From NCBI GenBank assembly GCA_035631615.1, contig DASQIK010000066.1, positions 15,852 through 79,851 of the forward strand: a stretch of DNA of 64,000 nt. Direction: 5' to 3'. The position numbers were made by a program, and so were the translations under genes. Each line of letters starts with the position of its first letter. Within the stretch, counting starts at the first letter, position 1. The stretch is from Candidatus Dormiibacterota bacterium (GTDB lineage Bacteria; Chloroflexota; Limnocylindria; Limnocylindrales; CSP1-4). Below, in pieces: positions 23,320 through 41,384 of the stretch. Under the pieces are notes generated by a model. It was not told the origin of the DNA and ran no database searches. It saw nothing but the letters and a program-made list of their open reading frames with translations.

Positions 23320-26034
23320 ATGGCTACGATCGCCGGCATGACCCGGCGCTCGGCCCCGAGCTATCGCGGCCTGCTCGCCGCGGCGGGGGCGCTGGTCGTC
23401 GTCGCCGCGGCGTGGTCGACAGCGCTGCTCATCGCACCCCGGCCATCCACGAGCCCGGCGACGCCCGCCGGCGCGGCTGCCGGCCCGCACATCGCCCCGA
23501 CGCCGGGTTCGTCGGTTCCGTTCGATGTCCGGCAGCTGCCCCAGCTCTCGGCGAAGAGCGGTCACGACCGGGACAAGCTCCGCGAGAAGCATGCCCCGGA
23601 CGCCCATCCTGTCGGCACGGCCGCGTTCGCGCGGATCGGCTCGGGGCTCGGCGGGCCATCGGTCCCCGCGCCACCGACCGATACCTCGTTCGAGGGCCTC
23701 GCCTACAGCGACACATGTGGTCCGTCGCAATGCGGCGACGGGCATCCGCCGGACACCAACGGTGACGTCGGGCCGACGTACTACATCGAGGTCGTCAACA
23801 CCGCGATCGGCATCTTCGACAAGTCGACCGGCAGTCGCGTGGCGGCGTTCACGTTCGACGCGTTCATGAGCCGGGGCAGCTTCGGGAACCTGTGCGACAC
23901 CGACAACTTCGGGGATCCGGTCGTCCTGTACGACACGTTCCAGGACCGCTGGTTCATCACCGATTTCGCGTTCCAGGTCGATCGCTCGGGCAACATCGTC
24001 AACCCGCCCGGTTCGTTCCAGTGCATCGCGGTCTCGAAGTCGGGCGATCCCGTCTCGGGCGGCTGGAACTACTACTCGATCCACCTCACGGACGGCCTTC
24101 AGGACTATCCGAAATTCGGAATCTGGCCGGACGGCATCTACATGTCGGCCAACATGTTCGACTACTCGGCGGCGGGGAGCTACCACAACGTGCGCGTGTG
24201 GGCGCTCGACAAGGCCAGGATGTACGCGGGCCAGGCGGCGTCGGTGATCACGTTCGATGCGCCGGCGACCGTCGTCCAGGGCGGGACCCTGTGCGACGTG
24301 TTCACGCTCCTGCCGAGCGACGCGCGTGCGCAGACAGGGACGCCTCCAGCCGGCCGCCCGAACCTGTTCGCGTCGACCTGGTGCCCGTCCAACGGCGTCC
24401 TGGTCTGGAAGTTCCACGTCGACTGGACGACGCCCGGGAACTCGACGTTCACGGGTCCGACGACGTCCTCGACCGGCTCCTCATGGTCCCCCGGTCCGGA
24501 CCTCGTGCCGGCGAAGAACGGCAATGACGTCGACACCCTCGGCTCGCGGACGATGGCCCAGAACCACTACACCAACCTCAACGGCGTGGAATCGCTCTGG
24601 GACTCGCACACCGTCGCCGGCGCCGACGGCACGCAGGCCGCGGTGCGCTGGTACCAGGTGCCGGTCACCGGCGGCACGGTCGGCAGCGCGCTCCAGGCAT
24701 CGACGTTCAACCCCGACACGGACAATCGGTTCATGCCCAGCGTTGCCGTGGATCGGCTGGGCGACATGGCGATCGGCTACAGCGTCGCCAGCGCCACGCT
24801 GTACCCCTCGATCCGGTACGCAGGCCGCCTTGCCGGCGATGCCGCCAATGCGATCACCCAGACAGAGGCGACGCTCATCGCCGGCACCGGGGCCCAGACC
24901 GGCAGCTGCGGCGGCGGGCCATGCGAGCGCTGGGGCGACTACTCGGCGATGACGCTCGACCCGAACGGATGCTCGTTCTGGTACGCCAACGAGTACTACA
25001 CCGACCTCAGCCTCAACGACCACACCCGGATCGGCTCGTTCCGGTTTGCGGGCTGCACGGACGTCCAGCCGTACTCGCTCGCCCCGGCGGTCGCGAGCGC
25101 CTCGGCCGGGCAGGGCAAGGTCGCGAGCTACACGATCAACATCACCCGCTCGAGCTTCGCGGGAACGATCGCGTTCAGCGCCTCGGGGCTGCCGCCCGGC
25201 GCTAGCGCGACATTCAGTCCGAACCCATCGAGCGGCTCCTCGGCAGCCCTCAGCGTCACGACATCGAACTGCGGCACGGTCACCCCGCGGGGCACGTACG
25301 CGATCACGGTCAAGGGCACGTCGGGCGGGCTGACGCAGTCGACATCCGTCTCGCTGACGGTGACCAACAGTGCTCCGACGCTGTCGACGCCGGTCGCCAC
25401 GCTCTACGGTGGCACGACGCTGGGGTCGACCACCGCCCGAGTGACGACGTCGTGGTCCGCGTGTGACGCGGACGGGATCAAGTCGTACGTCCTGCAGCGC
25501 CAGGTCAATGGCGGCGCGTGGGCAGGTGTCTCGCTCCCGACCGCGACCACGACGGCGATCAACCAGGGGTTGACCTTCGGCACGACCTACCGCTTCCGGG
25601 TCGTGGCGACGGACAAGACCGGAGTCGCGACCTCCTACGTGTACGGCTCCTCGTTCAAGCCGATCGTCAGCGACAACACGAGCACGGCGATCAGGTACGC
25701 GGGCTCCTGGGGCACGGCGACGTCCGGCTCGTACTACGGGGGCCACGCTCGCGACGCATCCGCCGCCGGGGCGTCAGCGACGTTCTGGTTCACTGGGTCG
25801 AGCGTCGCCTGGATCACGTACAAGAGCACGGGCCGCGGCTCGGCCACGATCTACGTCGACGGGGTGCTCCGAGCGACCGTGAGCCTGTACTCGACCACGA
25901 CCACCGCGAAGGCACAGGTCTACGCGTTCAACTGGGCGACCAGCGGCTCACACTCGATCAGGATCGTCGTCGCCGGCACCGCGGGCCATCCGCGCGTCGA
26001 CGTGGACGCGTTCCTGCGGCTTGCCCCGGGCTGA
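23320..26034 (+). CDS. large secreted protein: N-terminal signal/anchor, propeller-like core, C-terminal Ig/FN3-like and sugar-binding-like domains (function unknown)
   Basis: 904 aa. Signal-like LLAAAGALVVVAAAW. Conserved-looking PPDTNGDVGPTYYIEVVN and RWGDYSAMTLDP. Ends with a repetitive beta-rich C-terminus. No catalytic call possible by eye. Confidence 0.8.
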   Translation: MATIAGMTRRSAPSYRGLLAAAGALVVVAAAWSTALLIAPRPSTSPATPAGAAAGPHIAPTPGSSVPFDVRQLPQLSAKSGHDRDKLREKHAPDAHPVGTAAFARIGSGLGGPSVPAPPTDTSFEGLAYSDTCGPSQCGDGHPPDTNGDVGPTYYIEVVNTAIGIFDKSTGSRVAAFTFDAFMSRGSFGNLCDTDNFGDPVVLYDTFQDRWFITDFAFQVDRSGNIVNPPGSFQCIAVSKSGDPVSGGWNYYSIHLTDGLQDYPKFGIWPDGIYMSANMFDYSAAGSYHNVRVWALDKARMYAGQAASVITFDAPATVVQGGTLCDVFTLLPSDARAQTGTPPAGRPNLFASTWCPSNGVLVWKFHVDWTTPGNSTFTGPTTSSTGSSWSPGPDLVPAKNGNDVDTLGSRTMAQNHYTNLNGVESLWDSHTVAGADGTQAAVRWYQVPVTGGTVGSALQASTFNPDTDNRFMPSVAVDRLGDMAIGYSVASATLYPSIRYAGRLAGDAANAITQTEATLIAGTGAQTGSCGGGPCERWGDYSAMTLDPNGCSFWYANEYYTDLSLNDHTRIGSFRFAGCTDVQPYSLAPAVASASAGQGKVASYTINITRSSFAGTIAFSASGLPPGASATFSPNPSSGSSAALSVTTSNCGTVTPRGTYAITVKGTSGGLTQSTSVSLTVTNSAPTLSTPVATLYGGTTLGSTTARVTTSWSACDADGIKSYVLQRQVNGGAWAGVSLPTATTTAINQGLTFGTTYRFRVVATDKTGVATSYVYGSSFKPIVSDNTSTAIRYAGSWGTATSGSYYGGHARDASAAGASATFWFTGSSVAWITYKSTGRGSATIYVDGVLRATVSLYSTTTTAKAQVYAFNWATSGSHSIRIVVAGTAGHPRVDVDAFLRLAPG

Positions 26035-26432: not shown

Positions 26433-27773
26433 TCATTGGACGCGGGCTCGGGTCTGGGAGTATTGCCCGCCCTGCCCCGGCCAACGGATCGTCCAAACCG
26501 AAACTGGCTCGACGGGCACCAGGCAGGGATCGACGCCTCCGATGCATGCGCTCCTCGCTGGCCAATCGTGCGTATTCAACGGCCGGATCCAGAAGTCGGC
26601 GACGACACCGACCACAAGGAGCGCCGCGAGGGCCACGGCTGCGGCCCGGCGCCGGTGCGCGATTGCCAGGACCACGACGGCGCCGACGATCAGGCCAGGA
26701 ACGTAGAAGTAGTGCTCTCCGGCCACCGGCCCGAGGAGCGTGTGGTACGTGTTGATCGACCCCTCGAGGACAGCAGCCACCGACGCCACCCATACGTAGC
26801 CAAGCACGAACAGCCACCGGCGCGGCAGGTCTCGAACGGCGAAGACCAGCAATCCTGCGATCACCACGGCGACGACGGCGATGACCGGCGGCGTCGCAAT
26901 CAGCGTCGTGATCCGCGCGCCGAGGATCGGCTCCACGACGGCGCGGACGGCGACCACGCCGGTCGCGTCGTACAGCGTTCCGCCTCCGTGTGGCTCCCGT
27001 GTCGAGGTCAACAGCAAGGTCAGCTGGACCGCTGCCGCGATCGTGGTGATCGACGCCGTGGCGACTCGCCACCGGCTCCGGTTGGCGACTGCGGCGGCGA
27101 CGTGGAGCGGAGCGATGAACAAGCTGGCAAGGCCACTCATTGCGGCGAGTGCCAACGCGCAGAGCTCGATGACGCGGCGCTGACGCGAGCTCGGTTCTGG
27201 CGCGATCGCGGCCGCGATCAGGAACACGTCGAGGAACCACTGCGCATACGTCATCGAACCGATCAGCTCGGCCGTGCCCGGAGCGACGATGACGAGGGCC
27301 GCGAGCGCGAGCCGCGTCCGCTGGTTGGGAATGATCGCGGCGAGGCGGCCGCTCGCGAGATAGCACGCAACGGCGACCGCGATTGCGATCGCCGCGAGGT
27401 TCGCCACGAGTGGCGCGAACTGGATCGGCGGGACGCGCTCGAGAAGCGCGATCAGGCGCGGAACGACGTGCAGATAGCCCTCGTAGGGCCGCAGCACGCC
27501 GTCGAGCGGCGATCCGAAGTAGGTACCAAGGAAGAAGGTCTGCCCGTCCTCGACTCGGAACTCCGGTGTCAAGAGGATCTGCGGCCGGCGCGCCACTAGC
27601 AGCACGGCCCCGGCAATGGCAACCGCGACCAGATTGGCGGGACCCTGCCATCGATCAGTTGCCGTCCGTAGCGCGCTGGCATCGGGAGGTATGGGAGGCG
27701 CCTGCTGCGACATGGACCTCGACGCCTCCAACGAATCCGCCAGATTACGGGCCGCAATCATCGCGCGATGCAA
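26433..27773 (-). CDS. polytopic integral membrane protein (function unknown)
   Basis: 446 aa with 9 or more hydrophobic segments and a C-terminal Cys pair (CIGGVDPC). Likely start is the ATG at 27711-27713 (MSQQAPP). Confidence 0.7.
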   Translation of the reverse strand: MHRAMIAARNLADSLEASRSMSQQAPPIPPDASALRTATDRWQGPANLVAVAIAGAVLLVARRPQILLTPEFRVEDGQTFFLGTYFGSPLDGVLRPYEGYLHVVPRLIALLERVPPIQFAPLVANLAAIAIAVAVACYLASGRLAAIIPNQRTRLALAALVIVAPGTAELIGSMTYAQWFLDVFLIAAAIAPEPSSRQRRVIELCALALAAMSGLASLFIAPLHVAAAVANRSRWRVATASITTIAAAVQLTLLLTSTREPHGGGTLYDATGVVAVRAVVEPILGARITTLIATPPVIAVVAVVIAGLLVFAVRDLPRRWLFVLGYVWVASVAAVLEGSINTYHTLLGPVAGEHYFYVPGLIVGAVVVLAIAHRRRAAAVALAALLVVGVVADFWIRPLNTHDWPARSACIGGVDPCLVPVEPVSVWTIRWPGQGGQYSQTRARVQ

Positions 27774-27971: not shown

Positions 27972-28019
27972 GTGGTGAGCCCGCAGGGACTTGAACCCTG
28001 AACCCGCTGATTAAGAGTC
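27972..28019. repeat. distal att site: 48-bp perfect copy of the 3' part of tRNA-Lys
   Basis: 27972-28019 is 48/48 identical to 41309-41356 by hand alignment. It covers the tRNA from the anticodon stem to CCA plus 1 nt, and no 5' half is present here. Confidence 0.95.
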
Positions 28020-28109: not shown

Positions 28110-28135
28110 CGTTGCTACCAGCCGTTGCTACCAGC
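28110..28135 (+). repeat. tandem 13-bp repeat CGTTGCTACCAGC x2 (putative integrase arm-type site)
   Basis: Read directly. The core GTTGCTACC recurs twice at 41228-41249 in the same orientation, just inside the other island end. Confidence 0.8.
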
Positions 28136-28178: not shown

Positions 28179-29639
28179 CTACCGATTCATGGCCTCGCGG
28201 AACGGCTCGTGCAGGAAATCTCTCAGCGGTATCGGCTTGTCCAGGGCTCTGGGAATTCCGAGCTCGATGGCGCGCCGTCGGATCAACGTTCGCCACTCGC
28301 GACGTCGCCGTGGGTCGACCATCGCTTCGTCGACGTCCAGATCAGGATCACGGTCGAACCGCCAAGGTCCCGACCCGCCCGCTTCGAGGAGCAGACGGGC
28401 GAGGATCGCCCGTCTGAGAAGATCGCGCCACCGATCGAACAGGACGGCCACGCGGTCGTCGACCATGACCTGATCGAGTCCTCGCGCGGCGAAGAGATCC
28501 TCCCAGCGCTTCGGTGGGATGACCTCGCCGTGGGCGACCTTCCCGCGAATCTTGAGCAGCTCACCGACGTCCTCGAAGATCGCCGAGGGCGGGTCGCCGG
28601 CGCGCGCGAGGAGCTGAGCCGCTCGAGTCTTGATTCTGAGCGTGATCTCCTCGCGCTCACCGGTCGAGAGCGCGGCCTCGAGGCCGATGGCGATGTCGAT
28701 GACGACGTCCGCCCAGGCAGCGGTCCGGTGCGATCGGTTGAACCGGCTCAGGGCGACGATGATCGCGGGCGGGATCTTCACCTTCGAGCGATCGTCGAGC
28801 TCGCAGATGCGCGTTGCGATCGCATCGATCCCGGCGAGTTCCTCAGCATTGACGACACCTACGCGGAGCCAGGATGTAGCCTGCTCGGGATCCACGGCAA
28901 CTGCGTTCGGCCCGCCGGTGTGGACCATCTTCGGCTGTCCATAAACCTCGAAGGGCTCGACGATCGACCCCGCCGTAACAAGGCGGAGCGCCGTCGAACC
29001 GTGCGCGAGGTGTGGCCGAACATCGAACGCGACGATCCAGCCATCGCGGCCCGATCCCTCGGCGACGAGGAACGCACTCGGCTCCGTCGAACCCCAGCTC
29101 ACGTGCGCGTCGTCGCTCGCGCTGGCGCCCTCAGGGATCTCCGGTGAGATCGTCTCCCGGATGCCGTGGACGTGGCGGATCCGAGCGTCGTGGAGCTCCT
29201 GACCGTCGACCGCACTCGCGTCCAAGTCAAGGAGGAGGCGCATCACGCGAACCGGCTGCTCAGGGTGCTCGAGGTGGTCTAAGAGCTCGTCGACCTGCGG
29301 GCCCGGGCCCGACACCACCTCGCCGTACCGGAGTGTCTCGACCGTGGCGGCCGCAACGACACCACGAACGAGGGCCTCGACGTATTCCTCCGCGCGGCCG
29401 AACCCGAGCCTCCATCGGCCGGGGATGAGTTCGTTGAGTTCGTTTGCCAGGTCATCCTCTGCCGCCCCGCGGCCGCGCAGCCGCCAAAGCCGTCGGCGCT
29501 CGATCCAGGGGTTGTCGCGGCCAGGCGCGGGGATTAGGCCGGCGGCCTCGAGACGGGGCAGCTCGGCCTTCAGGTACCGGATCGCAGCGTCGCGGATTCG
29601 CTCACGAGTCACCGCATCGATCGGGAAGGATGTCGCCAC
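28179..29639 (-). CDS. HEPN-motif protein (ApeA/Abi-like architecture: unknown N-terminal domain plus C-terminal HEPN-like helical domain)
   Basis: 486 aa. The C-terminal third is helical, with ALSRFNRSH...IGLEAAL...LLKIRGKVAHGE containing R-x4-H (R365-H370, nt 28530-28547). First gene inside the distal att site. Confidence 0.6.
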   Translation of the reverse strand: MATSFPIDAVTRERIRDAAIRYLKAELPRLEAAGLIPAPGRDNPWIERRRLWRLRGRGAAEDDLANELNELIPGRWRLGFGRAEEYVEALVRGVVAAATVETLRYGEVVSGPGPQVDELLDHLEHPEQPVRVMRLLLDLDASAVDGQELHDARIRHVHGIRETISPEIPEGASASDDAHVSWGSTEPSAFLVAEGSGRDGWIVAFDVRPHLAHGSTALRLVTAGSIVEPFEVYGQPKMVHTGGPNAVAVDPEQATSWLRVGVVNAEELAGIDAIATRICELDDRSKVKIPPAIIVALSRFNRSHRTAAWADVVIDIAIGLEAALSTGEREEITLRIKTRAAQLLARAGDPPSAIFEDVGELLKIRGKVAHGEVIPPKRWEDLFAARGLDQVMVDDRVAVLFDRWRDLLRRAILARLLLEAGGSGPWRFDRDPDLDVDEAMVDPRRRREWRTLIRRRAIELGIPRALDKPIPLRDFLHEPFREAMNR

Positions 29640-30132: not shown

Positions 30133-30921
30133 ATGGATCCGCTGACGGCGCTGCTTGGCACGGTGGGCGTCGCCACAGTGGGTGTAGTCGCGACCCTCAT
30201 TCTGAAGAAGGCCGGGTTCGACGAGGTCGATATCGGGGTCAACCCGCCGCGATTCAAGATCTCCCGCAAGAAGCCTGAGCCGTCCCACGGCGGGTCGCCC
30301 CTACCGAGTGTCGAGCCGCCGGCGCCGACCGGCTCAGAGATCCAGCGTGAGCGAGACCAGCTGCGAGAGGCGATCTTCGCGTATAGCGAGGCCGCGCAGG
30401 CGCTCGAGGCCCTGCTCGGATGCAAGGCAGTTGAGCGCGACCGATACGCTCGGGAGTGGTTCGACAGCCTGTGCAACGGCCTCGAGACCGCACTTAGGAC
30501 CTCAACGGAGGAGCGCTATCGAGCGAGCGTCTGGGCCAGTCGCGCCGATCCCGAGAACTTCGATGCAGTCGGCCTTGGCAAGTTCGATCCTCACGACGTC
30601 CGCTACCAGAAGCTGAAACGGACGGGCACCATCGGCGGCGAGGCGTTCGCCGTCACGAGCGGCGAGAAATACTGCCCCGACATCCACGATCCGGACTGCA
30701 ATTGGGTGCCACGGAGCACGAAGAAATCGAAGTACCGAAGCCTGTTCGCGGTGGCGCTCGTCGACCTCGAAAACGAAACGCGACGCTGGGGCGTACTGAC
30801 GATCGATTGCAACATCAAGGACGGGTTCTCAAAACTCGACCAACAGGTCGCGCGTCATTTCGGCGAGCTAGCGTCGCTGGGCGAGCTGGTCTGGCGTCGC
30901 AAGGAAGCACCGCCGGTCTAA
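30133..30921 (+). CDS. membrane-anchored protein with C-terminal GAF-like domain
   Basis: 262 aa. N-terminal TM (LLGTVGVATVGVVATLIL), a helical linker, then a GAF-like pattern: RASVWASRADPENFDAVGLG...GTIGGEAF...YRSLFAVALVD...RWGVLTIDC...FSKLD. Domain call by eye. Confidence 0.6.
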   Translation: MDPLTALLGTVGVATVGVVATLILKKAGFDEVDIGVNPPRFKISRKKPEPSHGGSPLPSVEPPAPTGSEIQRERDQLREAIFAYSEAAQALEALLGCKAVERDRYAREWFDSLCNGLETALRTSTEERYRASVWASRADPENFDAVGLGKFDPHDVRYQKLKRTGTIGGEAFAVTSGEKYCPDIHDPDCNWVPRSTKKSKYRSLFAVALVDLENETRRWGVLTIDCNIKDGFSKLDQQVARHFGELASLGELVWRRKEAPPV

Positions 30922-31263: not shown

Positions 31264-32562
31264 ATGCCCGGGAAAGCCCGAGGCCAGGCGGGTTCGTGCG
31301 CGTCCGCGGATCCAACTCGGGGGCCATCGGCGGCCGCCAGGTTGCCGACCGCGTGGCGGTGCGCGTTGCGGCTGCTCGTCGCGCCCGGGCACGTTCCGCG
31401 CGGAAACGAGATCGACCTCCCGCGGACCCGGAGCGATCCGAGGGTGGGCGAGGCGAGTCACGTACGGCTCACCGGGTGGGTCGGCTTCTCCACTATCGCG
31501 GTCGCCGCCGCTGGCCTGATCCTCGTCGCCGGACGGGGAATGGGCTTCTACAACGACGAGTGGTGGTTCATCCTCGGCCGCTCGATCTCGGACCCGGTGA
31601 CATGGTTCGCCGCGCACAACGAGCATTGGGTGACGCTCCACGTCATCGTCTACCTCGGCCTCCACCAGCTAGTCGGCGAGAGCTCGTATCTCCCGTACCT
31701 GGCCGCCCTCATGGCCGTCCACGTCTCGGCGGCTGCCGCGCTGTTCATCCTCGTCCGGCGGATCCGCGACGGCTGGGCGCCGCTTGCCGTCACGTCGATC
31801 TTCCTCGTCCTCGGATCGGGCTTCGAAAACCTGTTCTGGGGTTTCCAGATGGGGATGGTCGGCGGCCTCAGCCTCGGTCTGTGGGCACTCGTCGCCGTGC
31901 CACGGCGGCCGATCGTCGCGGCGGTGCTGCTGCTCGCGGGGGTCGCGACGTCGGGCTCCGTCCTTTTCGGGGTCGCGGCGGCGTGCGTGTACCTGCTGCT
32001 GACCCGTCCACGCTGGGCCGCGATCACGCTGCTGCCTGTTGCCGCCTATGGCGTGTGGTGGGTGGTCATCGGCGCTGCCACGGCACGCAACGAGCACCTC
32101 CCGTTCAATCTCGGCTGGACGCTTGGGTATCCCGGCAACGCGCTCGGTGCCTGGATGGGTGGTGTGACCGGCCTCGGCTTCGCGGGCGGCCTCGCAGTCC
32201 TGCTCGTCACGCCATACCTGCTGTATCGCTCGCGGCCCTTGAACCCGCTCGTCCTGGCGTCGATCGCGGCGATCACCGCCGAGGTCGCGGTGCTCACGTT
32301 GAGCCGGTCGGCGATCAACTCACCGTGGGCGCCCCGGTACGTCTACCTGTGCGCGCCGTGGGCGCTGATCGTCGCGTCGGCGATGCGGCTTCCGACGCTG
32401 GTCGCCCGCCCGGCGTTCGCTTGGGCATTGGCGGTCAACCTGCTGCTCGTCGTGTACTGGGGCCACCAGTGGCCGATCGAGCGAGGCAATCCGCCGGTTA
32501 CCTGCCAGCCCGCGGCAGTCGCGGGCGCCAGCGTGTGCGAGACGAATTTCGCCGCTCGCTAG
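31264..32562 (+). CDS. polytopic integral membrane protein (function unknown; island cargo)
   Basis: 432-aa ORF with about 10 hydrophobic segments and a C-terminal Cys pair (VTCQPAAVAGASVC). Start uncertain: ATG 31264, or a GTG near 31444. Confidence 0.65.
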   Translation: MPGKARGQAGSCASADPTRGPSAAARLPTAWRCALRLLVAPGHVPRGNEIDLPRTRSDPRVGEASHVRLTGWVGFSTIAVAAAGLILVAGRGMGFYNDEWWFILGRSISDPVTWFAAHNEHWVTLHVIVYLGLHQLVGESSYLPYLAALMAVHVSAAAALFILVRRIRDGWAPLAVTSIFLVLGSGFENLFWGFQMGMVGGLSLGLWALVAVPRRPIVAAVLLLAGVATSGSVLFGVAAACVYLLLTRPRWAAITLLPVAAYGVWWVVIGAATARNEHLPFNLGWTLGYPGNALGAWMGGVTGLGFAGGLAVLLVTPYLLYRSRPLNPLVLASIAAITAEVAVLTLSRSAINSPWAPRYVYLCAPWALIVASAMRLPTLVARPAFAWALAVNLLLVVYWGHQWPIERGNPPVTCQPAAVAGASVCETNFAAR

Positions 32563-32682: not shown

Positions 32683-33339
32683 TCAGGCGCCGGCCAACGA
32701 GGCCCAGAACTCGGGCGAGTACGACGTGGACGACAGAATGTTGAGCGCCCCGCCAGATGTCTGGACGGCCAATGCCTGGAAATACTGGCCGGCGGTCGGT
32801 TCCCATTCAGTCGAGCACGACAACCGCGTGACGTCGCCGTTGACTGCCCCTCGAACGTCCGACACGATCGCCACGCCATTGCACAGGATGTACAGGTAGC
32901 GGATGCCCGTGGCGTTCGACGCGAACTCGACGCTGGCACCGACGCGCCACAGGCCGCCCATGCCGGTCGGGATGGTGAGCCGGTCCGTGTTGGAGCTCGT
33001 GCTGTGGATCGAGTCGGAGTCGTAGCGGTTCGTGTTGAACGTGAGCATCGTTCCGAAGTCGCCGGAGTTCCGCGACAGGTTCGCGTTGTTGTAGGCGCGG
33101 GCGCCATGGAGCGGCGTGTAGCCCCACGACGGCACCGTGCCGTTGCTCACGTAGACCGTGCCGGCGGCTCCGGCCGCGATGTTGCCCCACGTCGCCCACG
33201 AGTTGCCGGCGTAGTTCGACTTGTAGAGCAGATTGTGCGTGGAGCACGAGTAGAGCGAGCCGTCCGGCACGGTGTTCGCGGCTGGTCGGTTCGCGTGGGT
33301 GTCGAGCCCGAGATGGATCCCGGCAACGGTGGCAGTCAT
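32683..33339 (-). CDS. tail-fibre / receptor-binding-like protein (C1q/TNF-like jelly-roll suspected)
   Basis: 218 aa, Asn/Ser/Thr/Gly-rich and beta-type. Segments FDSDSIHS..DRLTIPTGMGGLWRVGASVEF...IRYLYILCNGV resemble C1q-like fibre tips. GGGAGA sits 5 nt upstream of the ATG. Assignment tentative. Confidence 0.45.
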   Translation of the reverse strand: MTATVAGIHLGLDTHANRPAANTVPDGSLYSCSTHNLLYKSNYAGNSWATWGNIAAGAAGTVYVSNGTVPSWGYTPLHGARAYNNANLSRNSGDFGTMLTFNTNRYDSDSIHSTSSNTDRLTIPTGMGGLWRVGASVEFASNATGIRYLYILCNGVAIVSDVRGAVNGDVTRLSCSTEWEPTAGQYFQALAVQTSGGALNILSSTSYSPEFWASLAGA

Positions 33340-33700: not shown

Positions 33701-34084
33701 CTACCTCCGCCTCGGGCCGTACCAGCGGGCCTGGGCGCCGCGACGAGCGAACCTGGTCGCTGCGGCCGAGGCATCGTCCGGATCCTCGTCCGGCAGCTGG
33801 AGCCTGCCGATGAGCCGGCCGAGGAGCTCGCGCTGCTGCCGTTGCTCGGCGAGCAGCGGGTGGGCAGTCAGCTGGCCCCGGCTGCCAGGGATGGCGAGCT
33901 CGGCGCCGGCGAGCGCGGTTGCGATGAAGTCGATCGAGTCGAGCGTGCGACACGCCTCGGCGAGCAGCTCGAGCTCGGGGACCGAGAAGTCGAAGTCGGC
34001 GACCAGGCGGCGCCAGAGCCGGCGACCACGAGCGCCGAGGCCGCGCGGGGCGGGGGTCAGACCGGCCACGGCATATTCATGCAT
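33701..34084 (-). CDS. phage terminase small subunit, P27-family-like
   Basis: ORF 33701..34111 trimmed to the ATG at 34082-34084. GRRLWRRLVADFDFSVPELELLAEACRTLD...GQLTAHPLLAEQRQQRELLGRLIGRLQLP matches the P27 TerS pattern as I recall it. Confidence 0.6.
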   Translation of the reverse strand: MHEYAVAGLTPAPRGLGARGRRLWRRLVADFDFSVPELELLAEACRTLDSIDFIATALAGAELAIPGSRGQLTAHPLLAEQRQQRELLGRLIGRLQLPDEDPDDASAAATRFARRGAQARWYGPRRR

Positions 34085-34207
34085 GCGGGAAAAACAGCCC
34101 GATCCGGGCACCGAGGTCGCACGCGGCTGCGACGCGGTCCTCGTTTGGCGGTCGATCGAAAGTTCTGGACCCCCCTACCCGGCAATTCATGCACGGGCAT
34201 GCACGAA

Positions 34208-35736: not shown

Positions 35737-37041
35737 TCACGCCGTGCCCCACACCGCGGCCGGCTGCTCAGCGTCGAGCTCGAGGATCGGATTGCCAGGC
35801 GCCTCGAACAGCCCGGCCGGCTCGATCTCATCTGCGCGCTCGGGTTCGGCCGCGAAGATGTGCGCCATCCGATCGCCGACCGTCGCGGCCTCGCGCGTGT
35901 GTCCCGCTTCACTCCACTCACTCCCCGAGTGACCAGAGTTATCGGGGACAGTACGCGCGCGCGAGACGTAGCCCTTCGCCGATCGCATGACCGCGCCGGT
36001 GTCGACGAGCTTGCTGACGAGGTGCTGAACGGACGTCCGCTCGAGGCCGGTCATGTCCGCGATCGCCTTCGGGAACAGCGGACCGTGCGATTCGATCACT
36101 CGGAACACTTGCATACGCTCGAACGAGGCTTCGGGCAGGGCGGCCGGCGCGGCACGCCAGAGTCCGTCGACGAATCGGACCGGCACCTCGGCCTCGGCGA
36201 CGTCGCGGCCGGTCACGTCGAGCGTCCCGAACTCCTCGTGGCGCTTGCGCCGGACGACGATGACCGTGTCTGCCGAGCCGGCGATGCCGTAGGTGCCCGA
36301 GACGCTGGCCAGGAAGTCGTCGCTCGATTGCTTGCGAGCGTGGTGGACGATGACCAGGGCGGTCGGTCGATCGCGGAACAGCGCCTGGAGGCGGCCGAGG
36401 TCCTCGACGTCGACCTGGTAGGCGTTGCGCCGGCTGTCGCCGTGCGGGCGGACCTTGCCGAGCGTGTCGATTGCCACGACGGCCGCGTCGGCGTGAGCGT
36501 CGAGCCACGCGGCGATCGATTCCTCGAGCCCGGCGCCGATCATCGGCGCCGACCAGCGCACCTCGAGCCGGCCCTTCGGCATCGTGCGACCGGCGAGGGC
36601 GCCGCGGAGCCGCGCCTGGCCGCGACGGTGCCCGTCCTCGAGCGCGAGGTACAGGCTGGATCCGGAGGCGACGCGACGGCCGAGAAGCTCGCCGCCCAGA
36701 GCGACCTCGACGCACAGCTGATACACGAGGGTCGATTTGCCGATCTTCGGCTCGGCGGCGATGACCGTCGTGCCCTCGTACACGACGTCCGGAACGACCG
36801 CCCGAAGCGGTGCGAGCTCGAGCGCCAGGAGGTCGACGGCGTCGATGCCGCCCGCATCCCGCCGGAGCCGCTCAGCCCGTGACTCGGCGAGCTCGGTGGC
36901 AGTCGGTTGAGCGTCCCACCACGCCGGCGATCCGAGAACCGGCGCGACGGCCTCGGCTTCGCCCTCCGGATCCCGCGTCGCGAGCTCCACGCGCTCGTCG
37001 ATCGCTCGGTCACCGAGCCACGCGATCCGCTCTTCGGTCAC
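35737..37041 (-). CDS. AAA_25/RepA-like RecA-fold ATPase (replication/helicase-loader type of integrative elements) with C-terminal winged-helix
   Basis: ORF 35737..37122 trimmed to the GTG at 37039-37041, a GTGA overlap. Walker A AAEPKIGKST, Walker B VVAIDTLG, then LVIVHHARK. C-terminal FRVIESHGPLFPKAIADMTGLERTSVQHLVSKL. Confidence 0.75.
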   Translation of the reverse strand: MTEERIAWLGDRAIDERVELATRDPEGEAEAVAPVLGSPAWWDAQPTATELAESRAERLRRDAGGIDAVDLLALELAPLRAVVPDVVYEGTTVIAAEPKIGKSTLVYQLCVEVALGGELLGRRVASGSSLYLALEDGHRRGQARLRGALAGRTMPKGRLEVRWSAPMIGAGLEESIAAWLDAHADAAVVAIDTLGKVRPHGDSRRNAYQVDVEDLGRLQALFRDRPTALVIVHHARKQSSDDFLASVSGTYGIAGSADTVIVVRRKRHEEFGTLDVTGRDVAEAEVPVRFVDGLWRAAPAALPEASFERMQVFRVIESHGPLFPKAIADMTGLERTSVQHLVSKLVDTGAVMRSAKGYVSRARTVPDNSGHSGSEWSEAGHTREAATVGDRMAHIFAAEPERADEIEPAGLFEAPGNPILELDAEQPAAVWGTA

Positions 37042-37268
37042 GGCTGGAGCTCGAGCATCGCGAGCTGGGCCTCGAGGGCGGTCAGACGAGCGGCGGCGTC
37101 TGCGGCCGCTCGTGCCGCCCACTCGATCTGCCGCTCGAGGCGCCGACGCTGGCGCTCGGGATCAACCGCCCGGCCGGAGGTCGGCTCGCGACCGGGCGGC
37201 GACGAACGGACCCCGGCGGCCCATGCGCAAGCCGCCGAAGTGCGGCGCGGTGTGCGCTCAGTGCTCAT
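37038..37268 (-). CDS. small coiled-coil hypothetical protein
   Basis: 76 aa with 4-nt overlaps at both ends (ATGA and GTGA). The C-terminal half is helical (RRRLERQIEWAARAAADAAARLTALEAQLAMLE). Confidence 0.5.
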   Translation of the reverse strand: MSTERTPRRTSAACAWAAGVRSSPPGREPTSGRAVDPERQRRRLERQIEWAARAAADAAARLTALEAQLAMLELQP

Positions 37269-37516
37269 CGGGCCTTGGCCGCCATCTCGGCGATCGCCGA
37301 GCTCGGGACAACGCGCCGGCGGCCAATCGTCAGCGTCCGGAGCTCGCCCCGTTCGATCAGCTCGTACAGCGTCGATCGAGCGATGCCGCCGAGCGCCTGG
37401 CGCGCCTCGTCGACGTCCAGGAGCCGTTCAGGCTGGGCGGGCGCCTCGTTCCGCGAGGCAACCTCGGCGCGGAGCGCGTCGACGAGCTCGGCGACAGCCG
37501 CCTCGAGGCGCGTCAC
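37265..37516 (-). CDS. xis: excisionase-family (MerR-like) HTH DNA-binding protein
   Basis: LLDVDEARQALGGIARSTLYELIERGELRTLTIGRRRVVPSSAI is the classic Xis/AlpA-type pattern. GTG start overlaps the RHH stop (GTGA). Confidence 0.75.
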   Translation of the reverse strand: MTRLEAAVAELVDALRAEVASRNEAPAQPERLLDVDEARQALGGIARSTLYELIERGELRTLTIGRRRVVPSSAIAEMAAKAR

Positions 37517-38348: not shown

Positions 38349-38725
38349 CGTCGATCCTTGCCTTCGGCCCACCGCACCGCGCCGCGGCTGACGCCGAGCT
38401 GTGTCGCGATCGCCTGCTCGCTGCTGGGCTGGCCGGCCTCGACGAGACGTTGTCTGGCGGCGGCGACGGCCTCCGAGTTGGTTGCGGCGGGCGCGCCCGG
38501 TCGCGTTGGGCGGGGTTCCGGATGGTGCGCCTGGCGGCGTAGTGCGGCGATCCGCAACAACCAGCCGCGCTGGCCGGCGACGGACTTGTCGATCCCGCCG
38601 ACGGACATGAGGTCGTGCAGGACCTCCTTGTCCGTGTATCCCTGATCCAGGTCCCATTTGATCAGATCGTCGACTGGCGAAGGAAACCCGACGGGGTCCA
38701 TAGCGCGGCTGGCGAGGTCGCTCAC
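38345..38725 (-). CDS. hypothetical protein with C-terminal HTH-like segment
   Basis: 126 aa with a 4-nt overlap with the integrase stop. C-terminal SSEQAIATQLGVSRGAVRWAEG resembles a helix-turn-helix. Confidence 0.55.
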   Translation of the reverse strand: MSDLASRAMDPVGFPSPVDDLIKWDLDQGYTDKEVLHDLMSVGGIDKSVAGQRGWLLRIAALRRQAHHPEPRPTRPGAPAATNSEAVAAARQRLVEAGQPSSEQAIATQLGVSRGAVRWAEGKDRR

Positions 38726-39924
38726 GAGTCACCGCCCAGGGCGCGATCCATCGCGTCGGCCGCATCGCGGCGTTGTGCCGCCACGACGCCGGCGTAGCGG
38801 TCCGCGGTAACGGTGATCGTCGAATGACCGAGCGACTCGCTCACGACCTTCAACGGGACCCCGGCTGCCAGGAGCGCCGTCGCAGCGCTGTGCCGGAGTC
38901 CGTGGAAGGCAATCGAGGGGAGCCTGGCGGCCTCGAGCAGCCGGTGAAACGCGTGGTTGACGTCGTGGCCCTGCAACGGCCGGCCGCCGGCGTCCGTGAA
39001 CACGAGCCCGCGCGTGTCCTGCCAGGCAGAGCCGAACCGGTCCTTGGCGGCCGTTTGGAGCTCCGCCTGGCGCTCGAGGGCGGCGACCACGGCCGCGGGC
39101 AGGTTGATCGTGCGCCTGCTGTGCGCCGTCTTGGGCTCGGCGAAGTCCCAGCTCTGGACGAGCTCGCCGTCGGTGCGCTGCCAGGCGCGCGCCAGTGAGC
39201 GCGAGACCGTGAGGGTCCGAGCCTCGAGATCGACGTCGGTCCAGTACAGGCCGAGGAGCTCGCCCTGGCGCAGCCCGGTGGCCGCGGCGACCGTGACGAG
39301 CGGGCCGAGGGGATGGACCTTGGCGGCCATCAGGAGCCGGCGCAGCTGGTCCGTGGTCAGGTAGTCGCGACCGGCCTCGAGCGACCGCGTAGGGACGCGC
39401 GGCGGGCGCGCCAGGGCCGCGACGTTGCGATGGACCCGACCATCGCGCACGGCATCCGCCAAGGCCCGCCGCAGGACCGCCCGGGCGAGCGCAGCGGTCC
39501 GTGGCGACCGGCCCGACTCGATCAGGGCTGCGGTCATGTGCTCGACGTCGGCCGGCGTCATCTTGGCCAGGTCGAGTCGCCCGAGCGGCGGCGTGAGGTA
39601 TCGCCTGGTCGTCGACTCGTACTGGCGCCAGGTCGCCGCGCGGATCCGCTGCCGCGAGGCGACCAACCATTCCGCGAGGAACGTGTCGACGGTGCCGGGC
39701 GGCGCCGGCGCGGTGCCCTTGTCGAGCTCGTCGCGGATCTTCGTGAGCTCCTTGCGGATCTCCTTCCGAGTCCGCCCGGACACGACGCGCCGCCGGCGAT
39801 CGCCGTGGGCGTCGGTCCACGCGATCGCGCCGCGCAGCCGGCCGTCGGCCGTCTCGTAGATCGATCCTTCGCCGTTGCCTCGCCGTGGCGCCTTCTCGCC
39901 GGCGGGCCGTTTGGCGCGGGTCAT
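38722..39924 (-). CDS. int: tyrosine recombinase / phage-type integrase
   Basis: 400 aa. Catalytic signature ATGLRQGE (Arg), HGLRHSAAT (H-x-x-R), LGHSTITVTADRYAGV (His, Tyr). N-terminal SAM-like domain. Confidence 0.95.
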   Translation of the reverse strand: MTRAKRPAGEKAPRRGNGEGSIYETADGRLRGAIAWTDAHGDRRRRVVSGRTRKEIRKELTKIRDELDKGTAPAPPGTVDTFLAEWLVASRQRIRAATWRQYESTTRRYLTPPLGRLDLAKMTPADVEHMTAALIESGRSPRTAALARAVLRRALADAVRDGRVHRNVAALARPPRVPTRSLEAGRDYLTTDQLRRLLMAAKVHPLGPLVTVAAATGLRQGELLGLYWTDVDLEARTLTVSRSLARAWQRTDGELVQSWDFAEPKTAHSRRTINLPAAVVAALERQAELQTAAKDRFGSAWQDTRGLVFTDAGGRPLQGHDVNHAFHRLLEAARLPSIAFHGLRHSAATALLAAGVPLKVVSESLGHSTITVTADRYAGVVAAQRRDAADAMDRALGGDS

Positions 39925-40469
39925 GACGCACCGCCGTTCCAGAGCCGGCGCACGCGGCCGCCGAGCTCGGCGTCAGGGATCGCGACGTCGTCGACGAGCC
40001 TGGCGACTGCCTCGAGGCGTGCCAGGCGCGCCTTCGCCTCGCGTTCGCGTTCGGCTCGAGCTGCCGCCTCGGCATCGCGCTCAAGGGCGCTGTCGCATCG
40101 TCGGCAGGCCTCGGAGGGAGCTCCGGGTGCCACGAGCAACCGCGGGCGATTCCCCGCGCGGCGCGGCCACCCGCTCGCCGGCTCGCCGACGTATGCGCTC
40201 ACCGCCTCGCGGAGCGCCCAGCCCGGTCGGTAGTGGCTGCAGCGGAGAGAGATCGAGCCGCTGCGACCGTTCCACCCGGTGACCAGGTGCCAGGGACCGA
40301 TCGGCTCGGTGACGCCATCGAGGTCGGTCCGCGCGGCACGGATCCACGAGCCCGCCGGGGGCAGGCCTGCAGGCGCCGGGTCAAGATCCTGGAGATCCGA
40401 GAGCCGGTCGCTGGCCAGCTCATTCAGCTCGGCGAGCTGTTTCTCGAGCTCGCGCCACGGCTCGCTCAT
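39921..40469 (-). CDS. hypothetical Cys-motif protein, paralogue B
   Basis: ORF 39921..40907 trimmed to the ATG at 40467-40469 (ATGA overlap). Shares PPAGSWIR, GPWH..TGW, LRC...GW and ACRRC with the gene upstream. Coiled-coil ends. Confidence 0.6.
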   Translation of the reverse strand: MSEPWRELEKQLAELNELASDRLSDLQDLDPAPAGLPPAGSWIRAARTDLDGVTEPIGPWHLVTGWNGRSGSISLRCSHYRPGWALREAVSAYVGEPASGWPRRAGNRPRLLVAPGAPSEACRRCDSALERDAEAAARAEREREAKARLARLEAVARLVDDVAIPDAELGGRVRRLWNGGAS

Positions 40470-41131
40470 GACACACCGCCGGCAACCAAGCGAAGCCGCG
40501 GTCGCGGATGGCACCGTCGGCAGGCGTCGACTGTGGGGAGCTCGTCGATCGCGACGTAGTCGTGCGAGGTTTCGCCCGTCGAGAAGTTCTCGTCGCGGAG
40601 CGTCGCCGACCAGCCGCACTTCATGCGGCCGCGGATCCAGTGCGTCCGACGATCGACCTCGGACCAATCGCCCGAGAAGATGTGCCAGCCGCCGTCCCAT
40701 CTGGGTTCTGCGAGAGGGCTCGTCCGGCGACTGGACCGGCGCTGGCCGGGTCGCGGGACGTAGCGCGACCGGATCCAGAGCCCAGCCTGGGGCGGGGCGA
40801 ACGGCAGCGCGTCTGGCGTTGCGAGCTCGTTGGCGATCGCCCCCGCCAGACCGCTCGCGACACCGTACAGGGCGGAGGTCGCCGCGGCGGCCATGATCCG
40901 CTTGCATGCGTCGATATCGAGGTCGGCGCCGAGCTCGTCCAGAACAAGCTCCGCCGGCTCAACGACGGTCCTCGCCAACTCCCGGGCGAGCGTGAGCAGC
41001 TGCGTTGGCGGAGGATCATTGGGCTTCGCCGTCGCGAGGCCCCACCGGGTGATGCCGAGGCGCTCGAGCGCGCCCCAGACCTCCTCGCGGGCCGCATCGT
41101 GACGGCCGGACCATCCCATAGACTGAGCCAT
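40466..41131 (-). CDS. hypothetical Cys-motif protein, paralogue A
   Basis: 221 aa. C-terminal PPQAGLWIR...GGWHIFSGDW...MKCGWSATLRDE...DACRRCH parallels paralogue B. First gene inside the tRNA-proximal att site. Confidence 0.6.
   Translation of the reverse strand: MAQSMGWSGRHDAAREEVWGALERLGITRWGLATAKPNDPPPTQLLTLARELARTVVEPAELVLDELGADLDIDACKRIMAAAATSALYGVASGLAGAIANELATPDALPFAPPQAGLWIRSRYVPRPGQRRSSRRTSPLAEPRWDGGWHIFSGDWSEVDRRTHWIRGRMKCGWSATLRDENFSTGETSHDYVAIDELPTVDACRRCHPRPRLRLVAGGVS

Positions 41132-41308: not shown

Positions 41309-41384
<76 letters not shown>

Follow-up and report, generated by a model that had tools for sequence, protein, structure and literature searches.

A candidate single-protein HEPN ribonuclease of the abortive-infection type, distantly related to ApeA, encoded by the last gene of a satellite-like island of a Chloroflexota genome

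The window analyzed here, a 64,000-nucleotide stretch of a Candidatus Dormiibacterota bacterium (Chloroflexota; Limnocylindrales; assembly GCA_035631615.1, contig DASQIK010000066.1, positions 15,852 to 79,851), contains, on the minus strand, a gene for a 486-amino acid (aa) protein that lies at the very end of an integrated island. We conclude, with a probability of roughly 0.6, that this protein, referred to below as the focal protein, is an anti-phage ribonuclease (RNase) of the abortive-infection (Abi) type that functions as a single protein and belongs to an unannotated family distantly related to ApeA. The gene and the regions and motifs recognized in its product are as follows.

28179..29639, minus strand: focal gene, 486 aa, GTG start, TAG stop
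29265..29639, minus strand: N-terminal all-helical region, residues 1-125 (AlphaFold; putative sensor or pocket-forming domain)
28779..29264, minus strand: middle alpha/beta region, residues 126-287 (predicted secondary structure, conservation)
28215..28778, minus strand: C-terminal HEPN-like domain, residues 288-475 (domain-only AlphaFold model and HHalign)
28668..28685, minus strand: G-L-E321-A-A-L motif at the end of helix H2 (conserved Glu; an acidic residue is expected in HEPN helix 2)
28527..28547, minus strand: predicted catalytic motif R365-G-K-V-A-H370-G371 (conservation; aligned with R502/H507 of Ec2ApeA)
28395..28436, minus strand: D402-R-W-R-D406-L-L-R409-R410-A-I-L-A-R415 motif in the long helix H4 (conservation)

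The reading frame is preceded by an in-frame TAG four codons upstream of the GTG start. With GC contents of 0.75, 0.47 and 0.80 at the first, second and third codon positions (GC1, GC2 and GC3, respectively), it is a true high-GC coding gene and lies exactly where a preliminary description of this DNA had placed it; the GC3 value compares with about 0.90 in the surrounding chromosome. The automatic gene call in the database (P0001) begins nine residues later and is 477 aa long. We prefer the 486-aa start because the P-I-D-x2-T-R stretch located ahead of the shorter one is conserved in homologues. Scans for sigma-70 promoters and intrinsic terminators around the gene identified no sites. The encoded protein contains 58 arginines and 12 histidines.

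A word-indexed protein search with the focal protein recovered only 24 clusters, none of which carried a Pfam domain. When 1.84 billion representatives were searched exhaustively with HMMER, 357 clusters (50% identity) were recovered at E <= 1e-3, most of them containing proteins of 480-520 aa with the same architecture. Residue conservation was counted in an alignment of 169 sequences of this family that reaches down to about 22% identity. The RGKVAH stretch, which the preliminary description had singled out as an R-x4-H motif, is indeed found at residues 365-370, and its key positions proved to be essentially invariant, as that description had anticipated for a catalytic site: R365 is present in 167 of 167 homologues, H370 in 167 of 168, and the adjacent G371 also in 167 of 168. 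H370 is the only conserved histidine among the 12 in the focal protein, the runner-up being shared by 43 of 164 sequences. The family consensus of the motif is Y-x2-R-S-x3-H-G, with Ser directly following the predicted catalytic Arg in 153 of 167 homologues; Gly occupies this position in the focal protein and its closest relatives (14/167). The mere occurrence of Rx4-6H provides no evidence because the number of instances in the focal protein, four, equals the expectation from shuffled sequences (4.15); it is the conservation of the residues, not the presence of the bare motif, that exceeds chance.

The conservation extends beyond this motif. E321 is invariant (166 of 166 homologues), and the long helix H4 carries a set of nearly invariant charged residues (R409, 166/166; R410 and R415, 165/166 each; R403, 166/167; D406, 165/167) that may form a structural network, a dimer interface or a surface binding RNA or a ligand. 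Outside the C-terminal domain, P44-W45 and R75 are conserved in the N-terminal region, and R219-L220, G234 and R259 in the middle region.

The AlphaFold2 model of the full-length protein has a predicted local distance difference test (pLDDT) score of 88.2 and a predicted template modeling (pTM) score of 0.89, and the model of the C-terminal domain alone (residues 288-475, 126-row alignment) reaches 94.8 and 0.91, respectively. The N-terminal region is modeled as helices 9-32, 48-61, 63-71, 83-105 and 113-124. The C-terminal domain comprises H1 (292-302), H2 (309-323), an insert helix (333-344), H3 (351-369), a second insert (376-385) and H4 (393-419), followed by an extension with helix 436-466; helices 292-302, 309-323, 333-344 and 351-369 agree with the four that had been read from the sequence in the preliminary description. 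The location of the R-x4-H motif had been misjudged there as the start of the last helix. According to DSSP on the AlphaFold models, R365 lies in the final turn of helix 351-369 and H370 opens the next loop, so that the motif straddles the end of H3 and the beginning of the loop, and three helical elements (376-385, 393-419 and 436-466) follow. E321 is positioned at the C-terminal end of helix 309-323. HEPN domains are defined by precisely such a motif at the end of H3 or the start of the H3-H4 loop, together with a conserved acid in helix 2 that is frequently part of E-x3-[KR]; they have an insert between helices 2 and 3, and typically, if not obligatorily, Asn, Asp or His directly after the catalytic Arg (PMC3710099). 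In the models, the position of the motif, the helix-2 acid E321 and the insert helix 333-344 fit this definition; the x3-[KR] part is missing after E321, where the sequence reads E-A-A-L-S.

The relationship to HEPN domains emerged through intermediates. A profile of the C-terminal domain reached two distant proteins (P0184, E = 3e-12; P0185, E = 9e-10), and a search outward from these two produced a bridge group of 16 proteins (P0184-P0199) that aligns with the C-terminal domain of the focal family with an HHalign probability of 99.6% (E = 4.6e-24, 145 columns). When the bridge group is added to the family, E321 and R365 remain invariant, and H370 is conserved in at least 90% of the sequences. 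A tblastn search of plasmids with the bridge consensus gave four weak matches, two of which are annotated in RefSeq as HEPN domain-containing proteins: WP_141889263.1 (Leisingera, 351 aa) and WP_254270689.1 (Halorussus, 520 aa). The focal-family profile matches these two independently annotated proteins with HHalign probabilities of 98.3% (E = 1.7e-14, 122 columns) and 96.7% (E = 3.6e-10), respectively, and in both alignments the two motifs are in register. A hypothetical protein of Rhodococcus matches the same profile at 96.4%. On these profile comparisons, mainly the two HHalign matches to annotated HEPN proteins, we consider it probable that the C-terminal domain belongs to the HEPN superfamily.

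The connection to ApeA in particular was approached from the same intermediates. One bridge member (P0186) matches the Pfam family HEPN_Apea (PF18739) with E = 0.009 and 16.9 bits, compared to a cutoff of 24.4 bits, in a stretch of the profile (positions 56-127) that takes in the motif. We estimate that about 0.8 chance matches at E of about 0.01 are expected over the approximately 85 sequences scanned, and we put at about 1e-3 the chance that a match of this kind would fall on a HEPN model, of which there are about 25 in a total of 24,736. Another bridge member (P0187) is named 'Apea-like HEPN' by JGI. The bridge profile aligns weakly (E = 0.36) with the Ec2ApeA structure 9hxd, placing 'kkfYdlRSrIVHGg' opposite 'RRIYRTR502NLIVH507TG', and a superfamily profile that combines the focal family, the bridge group and the annotated proteins retrieved, among 177,635 PDB sequences, only 9hxd (E = 0.054) and 9hxi (E = 0.065), both of which are Ec2ApeA. 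This alignment is collinear and covers residues 235-381 and 488-516 of Ec2ApeA: the first segment runs from the Mid domain through H1 and H2, with 'IAIESLI' opposite L-E321-A-L, and the second spans H3, with R365 and H370 falling on R502 and H507. The weak, collinear alignment of the middle region with the Mid domain of Ec2ApeA was obtained with the superfamily profile only. The link to ApeA is thus suggested by several sequence signals that are individually weak and agree with one another.

The focal gene is the last gene of an island that contains the following features.

27972..28019: distal attachment (att) repeat of 48 nt, matching the 3' part of tRNA-Lys without a mismatch (direct-repeat match)
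30133-30921, plus strand: open reading frame ORF262, with an N-terminal hydrophobic segment, divergent from the focal gene across a 493-bp intergenic region
31264-32562, plus strand: 432-aa polytopic membrane protein, island cargo, no Pfam match
32683-33339: fragment resembling a virion structural protein
33701-34111: small terminase
35737-37122: replicase with AAA_25 and winged helix-turn-helix (HTH) domains
37265-37516: excisionase-like (Xis-like) HTH protein
38722..39924, minus strand: tyrosine integrase (Pfam Phage_integrase, 1.4e-25; phrog_1, 2.2e-70)
41310-41384, minus strand: tRNA-Lys(CTT), the integration site, with the proximal att repeat at 41309-41356

The two identical copies of the 48-nt direct repeat, at 27972-28019 and 41309-41356, enclose 13.3 kb of DNA inserted in tRNA-Lys, and the stop codon of the focal gene is located 159 nt from the distal copy, which bears out the earlier remark that the gene sits at the edge of a mobile element. 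The gene set resembles that of a satellite, similar to phage-inducible chromosomal islands (PICI), or of a cryptic or decayed prophage, in a genome with 71% GC. The island genes have GC3 values of 0.80-0.87, below those of the flanks. The att-distal 5 kb is occupied by uncharacterized cargo, namely, the 432-aa membrane protein, ORF262 and the focal gene. The C-terminal domain of ORF262 has no match in Pfam, PHROGs or PDB; this gene could be a second defense or exclusion gene. The ends of satellites and prophages are known defense hotspots (PMC9122126). No relatives of the island replicase were found in IMG/VR. The 432-aa membrane protein was compared with a polytopic membrane protein of 446 aa encoded just outside the island (26433-27773), and the two are not paralogues.

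Several repeats in and around the island were observed in passing. Between the stop codon of the focal gene and the distal att repeat, at 28110-28135, a 13-nt sequence, GCTGGTAGCAACG (minus strand), occurs twice as a tandem direct repeat, flanked by the inverted arms CGCTGG...CCAGCG; it could be an arm-type site for the recombinase or Xis, or a terminator-like hairpin. An 18-nt sequence, TCGCTCACGAGTCACCGC, is found exactly at 29598-29615, within codons 9-14 of the focal gene, and at 38718-38735, where the integrase stop overlaps the start of the next gene, with a third, 83% identical copy at 40462-40479, at the end of ORF221; by a rough estimate (about 0.05), chance alone is marginally unlikely to produce an exact 18-mer repeat within 21 kb. 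A gene just beyond the island, at 23320-26034 (plus strand), encodes a secreted-looking, Ser/Thr/Gly-rich protein of 904 aa with Ig/fn3-like C-terminal repeats that showed only weak, sub-threshold matches (DUF5980, CE2_N, fn3).

The homologues are lone genes. Inspection of about 14 loci revealed no conserved neighbor in any of them, and hence no conserved antitoxin or partner gene. Some of the surroundings are suggestive of defense or mobility: one homologue (locus L004) has AbiEi/AbiEii directly upstream, another (L017) is accompanied by an Eco57I-type restriction-modification (RM) gene, ImmA/IrrE pairs, a P4-cII-like gene and an HTH_17 gene, and a third (L019) is adjacent to a methyltransferase-restriction endonuclease fusion. 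Four homologues lie less than 1 kb from a tRNA gene, at distances of 23 bp (L003), 33 bp (L008), 284 bp (L007) and about 850 bp (L001). The tRNA and att features at these loci are as follows.

L003, 9903-9978
L008, 11236-11312
L007, 2997-3070
L001, 9077-9152
L001, 11539-11556

At L001, the last 18 nt of tRNA-Arg are repeated exactly just past the homologue, and this repeat brackets a 2.4-kb islet that consists of the homologue and one small ORF. The likeliest explanation of the tRNA adjacency is that it reflects remnants of tRNA-site integration. The location next to tRNA genes is also curious for a putative tRNA nuclease. The named hosts are uncultured Limnocylindria, Dehalococcoidia and Acidimicrobiia and one alphaproteobacterial metagenome-assembled genome (MAG); a fragment of a family member was detected in Nocardia takedensis. 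Some members have extra N-terminal extensions (P0138, 647 aa; P0081, 741 aa; P0115, 580 aa; P0155, 670 aa). In P0138, a GNAT acetyltransferase is fused ahead of the full-length module (Pfam Acetyltransf_1, 2.5e-11); the other extensions have no match.

Several results weigh against a HEPN RNase related to ApeA and have to be set beside the transitive links. The focal protein itself has no match in Pfam, NCBIfam, PADLOC, PHROGs or the PDB sequences, in agreement with the preliminary description as far as the N-terminal region is concerned, which had been noted to lack any recognizable motif and drew a blank in the Pfam, PADLOC, NCBIfam and PHROGs searches. Pfam searches identified no HEPN domain in 21 full-length members or in 32 diverse C-domain segments, producing only scattered noise (DinB_2, NACHT, RecX; E > 0.01), and no match at all with noise-free consensus sequences of the family; none of these queries, including the focal protein, scored above the HEPN_Apea gathering score. 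Among 41 mixed members searched with PADLOC, no ApeA or HEPN model was matched and noise appeared in single members only (BrxA, PDC-M11A); nor did the ApeA N-terminal domain (ApeA_NTD1) match any of the 41. Profile searches of PDB with three alignments of the family likewise returned nothing, and phmmer comparison of the Leisingera and Halorussus HEPN proteins with PDB gave no matches. Foldseek was run on PDB and BFVD with the model of the whole protein, and on PDB with that of the C-terminal domain; its best E values were 0.3-1.2, TM did not exceed 0.26, and neither HEPN nor ApeA structures were among the best 50. Among the links themselves, a Pfam scan of P0187 yielded no matches despite the name given by JGI, the bridge-group consensus does not match HEPN_Apea, and the PDB match of the superfamily profile to ApeA (E = 0.05) is insignificant on its own. 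When the focal-family profiles were aligned with recovered ApeA fragments, HHalign gave only 1.8% and 16.9%, with the register kept. The predicted catalytic Arg is followed by Gly in the focal protein and by Ser in most homologues; neither is typical of HEPN, although Ser is polar. Finally, about half of the homologue neighborhoods are housekeeping-like, and no relatives were found by tblastn against GenBank phages and PLSDB plasmids or by a scan of IMG/VR. Of the two outcomes that the preliminary description had named as refuting, a lack of conservation of R365 and H370 clearly did not occur. The profile and structure searches proposed there for verification of the HEPN domain gave a divided answer: all direct ones came back empty, which by the criterion of that description speaks against a HEPN fold, whereas the transitive HHalign and profile links support it.

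The first question that these results raise is whether the fold is HEPN at all. In a new helical fold, the invariant Glu, Arg, His and Arg-Arg could serve some other chemistry or binding, as in a metal-dependent hydrolase or a protein binding nucleic acids or a ligand, and the R-x4-H spacing would be coincidental; Rx4-6H arises four times by chance in this protein. Such a fold would account for the failure of three Foldseek searches with confident models to find a HEPN or any other fold, for the lack of a direct hidden Markov model (HMM) match to any of about 25 HEPN Pfam models, and for the invariant D402, R403, D406, R409, R410 and R415, which have no counterpart in the HEPN definition. It would leave unexplained the HHalign matches, with both motifs in register, to independently annotated HEPN proteins, the agreement of the motif position and helix-2 acid with that definition, and the fact that the sole Pfam and PDB leads are ApeA/HEPN. 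Foldseek performs poorly on helical bundles. The authors of the ApeA cryo-electron microscopy study call the ApeA HEPN domain 'split' and 'structurally diverged', and it took GT-align for them to identify HepT as its closest homologue (bioRxiv 10.64898/2026.01.26.701840); because the ApeA HEPN domain is itself so diverged, we take the Foldseek negatives as weak evidence and regard a non-HEPN fold as improbable.

If the domain is HEPN, its role could still differ from general anti-phage immunity. The island that houses the gene is satellite-like and also encodes a small terminase and a replicase, and toxin-antitoxin systems commonly contain HEPN toxins (PMC3710099), so an RNase that stabilizes the island as a toxin or addiction module, or mediates interference between the satellite and its helper phage, has to be considered. 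We find this unlikely, and rank it below a non-HEPN fold, given that the 14 or so loci contain no conserved small antitoxin-like neighbor, that most homologues lie outside recognizable islands of the same backbone, and that the 486-aa, three-domain build is unlike that of minimal HEPN toxins. We give the least credence to a HEPN-fold protein that is involved in housekeeping or regulatory RNA processing, or is non-catalytic, and is found in a mobile element only incidentally. The metabolic and housekeeping genes that alone surround about half of the homologues, and the absence of family members from phage, plasmid and viral collections, speak for it; against it stand the rare and patchy distribution (357 clusters among 1.8 billion, across Chloroflexota, Actinomycetota and the single alphaproteobacterial MAG), the GC3 of the focal gene below that of its host, the repeated adjacency to tRNA integration sites, att-like repeats, Abi and RM genes, and the strict retention of the predicted catalytic residues.

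The reading that we prefer, a single-protein Abi-type RNase, most likely operates as a self-contained sensor-effector, a mechanism modeled on ApeA. ApeA is a single-gene abortive-infection system that cuts tRNA anticodon loops; it forms a ring oligomer, its HEPN domains dimerize into a composite site, a small ligand activates it by binding in a pocket that the N and HEPN domains form, and the R502A mutation renders it catalytically dead and abolishes defense (bioRxiv 10.64898/2026.01.26.701840). The ApeA signal consists of deoxydinucleotides. By analogy, we infer dimerization, RNase activity, an RNA target, a trigger and a defense phenotype for the focal protein. Two copies would pair via their HEPN domains to form a composite, metal-independent RNase site in which the R365-x4-H370 motifs are helped by E321 of helix 2. 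The enzyme would be inactive until the N-terminal and middle regions sense an infection cue, and the invariant charged face of helix 393-419 perhaps shares in this gating. Upon activation, cellular RNA would be cut, with tRNA anticodon loops the most likely substrate, even if the choice of tRNA specifically is tentative; translation and phage growth would stop, and the infection would be aborted. The gene itself would be carried as accessory cargo at the att-distal end of the satellite-like island.

It is also conceivable, with less than even odds, that these proteins form an immune sensor-effector family of their own, not described before, which acts as a single protein in uncultured Chloroflexota and Actinomycetota from soil and freshwater and has only the ancient HEPN core in common with ApeA. 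Its own N-terminal and middle regions, together with the invariant D-R-x-R-D-x2-R-R helix, would then constitute a new module for recognition of a ligand or trigger that responds to a signal other than deoxydinucleotides, possibly with another RNA target.

If the preferred assignment of the focal protein to an ApeA-related Abi-type RNase is correct, the one-protein sense-and-kill strategy of the ApeA type extends into Chloroflexota and Actinomycetota, lineages almost unexplored for immunity, and a compact ApeA-like scaffold (486 aa versus about 590 aa) becomes available for comparing the gating of HEPN tRNases. It would also add a model that defense-annotation tools now miss, for a family of at least 357 clusters that Pfam, NCBIfam and PADLOC do not model. 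The locus is a clean example, from a high-GC bacterium, of a satellite-like island whose att-distal end carries defense-type cargo. No new principle is implied, single-gene HEPN Abi proteins already being a well-populated class.

Among the known systems, DARNA (PD-T7-3) resembles the focal protein as a single-protein HEPN with a large non-catalytic part; it is an Abi tRNase that forms a higher-order oligomer. Its Csm6-like HEPN domain is N-terminal and its sensor C-terminal, and no homology was detected between the two; the opposite domain order rules out DARNA as the closest comparator. HepT and other minimal HEPN toxins (7AE8, 5YEP) and the HEPN superfamily as defined by Anantharaman et al. 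2013 share with the focal protein the Rx4H motif at the end of H3, the acid in H2, an H2-H3 insert and an expected need to dimerize, but the toxins have no sequence or Foldseek match to it, and the focal protein is three to four times larger. Unlike the HEPN-MNT systems (HepT/MntA), it is a 486-aa multidomain protein encoded without an adjacent MNT antitoxin.

The RefSeq HEPN proteins WP_141889263.1 and WP_254270689.1 and the bridge group contain a homologous C-terminal module (HHalign 96.7-99.6%) with the same motif pair behind a variable, large N-terminal region, and part of the bridge group shares with the focal protein the upstream element 'ALRLL...G'. The alignment is confined to the C-terminal domain, the N-terminal regions not being detectably homologous. 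Neither the D-R-W-R-D-L-L-R-R-A-I-L-A-R elaboration of the focal protein nor its C-terminal extension with W is present in these proteins.

In its overall organization, the focal protein most resembles ApeA (Ec1ApeA/Ec2ApeA; PF18739; 9HXD/9HXI). Both are encoded by a single gene without a partner, both combine a large N-terminal part with a C-terminal HEPN or HEPN-like domain in a compact, mostly helical N/Mid/HEPN monomer, and both motifs align, LEAL with 'IAIESLI' and Y-x2-R-S-x3-H-G with 'IYRTR502NLIVH507TG'. The differences are substantial: the focal protein is about 100 aa shorter (486 aa versus 593 aa in Ec2ApeA), the spacing between H2 and H3 is about 30 residues as opposed to about 110 in Ec2ApeA, the Asn that follows the catalytic Arg is replaced by Ser or Gly, and uncultured Chloroflexota and Actinomycetota take the place of Enterobacteria as hosts. 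Being below threshold for PF18739, ApeA_NTD1 and the PADLOC ApeA models, and having no Foldseek match to ApeA, the focal protein is outside the ApeA family as currently modeled. The core of the preliminary description, a C-terminal HEPN-like RNase domain behind a large N-terminal region in a single-gene ApeA/Abi layout carried by a mobile element, is the reading with the best support, from the invariance of the motif, the predicted topology, the transitive HEPN links and the lack of a partner gene, and ApeA is the only family that any Pfam or PDB lead reached.

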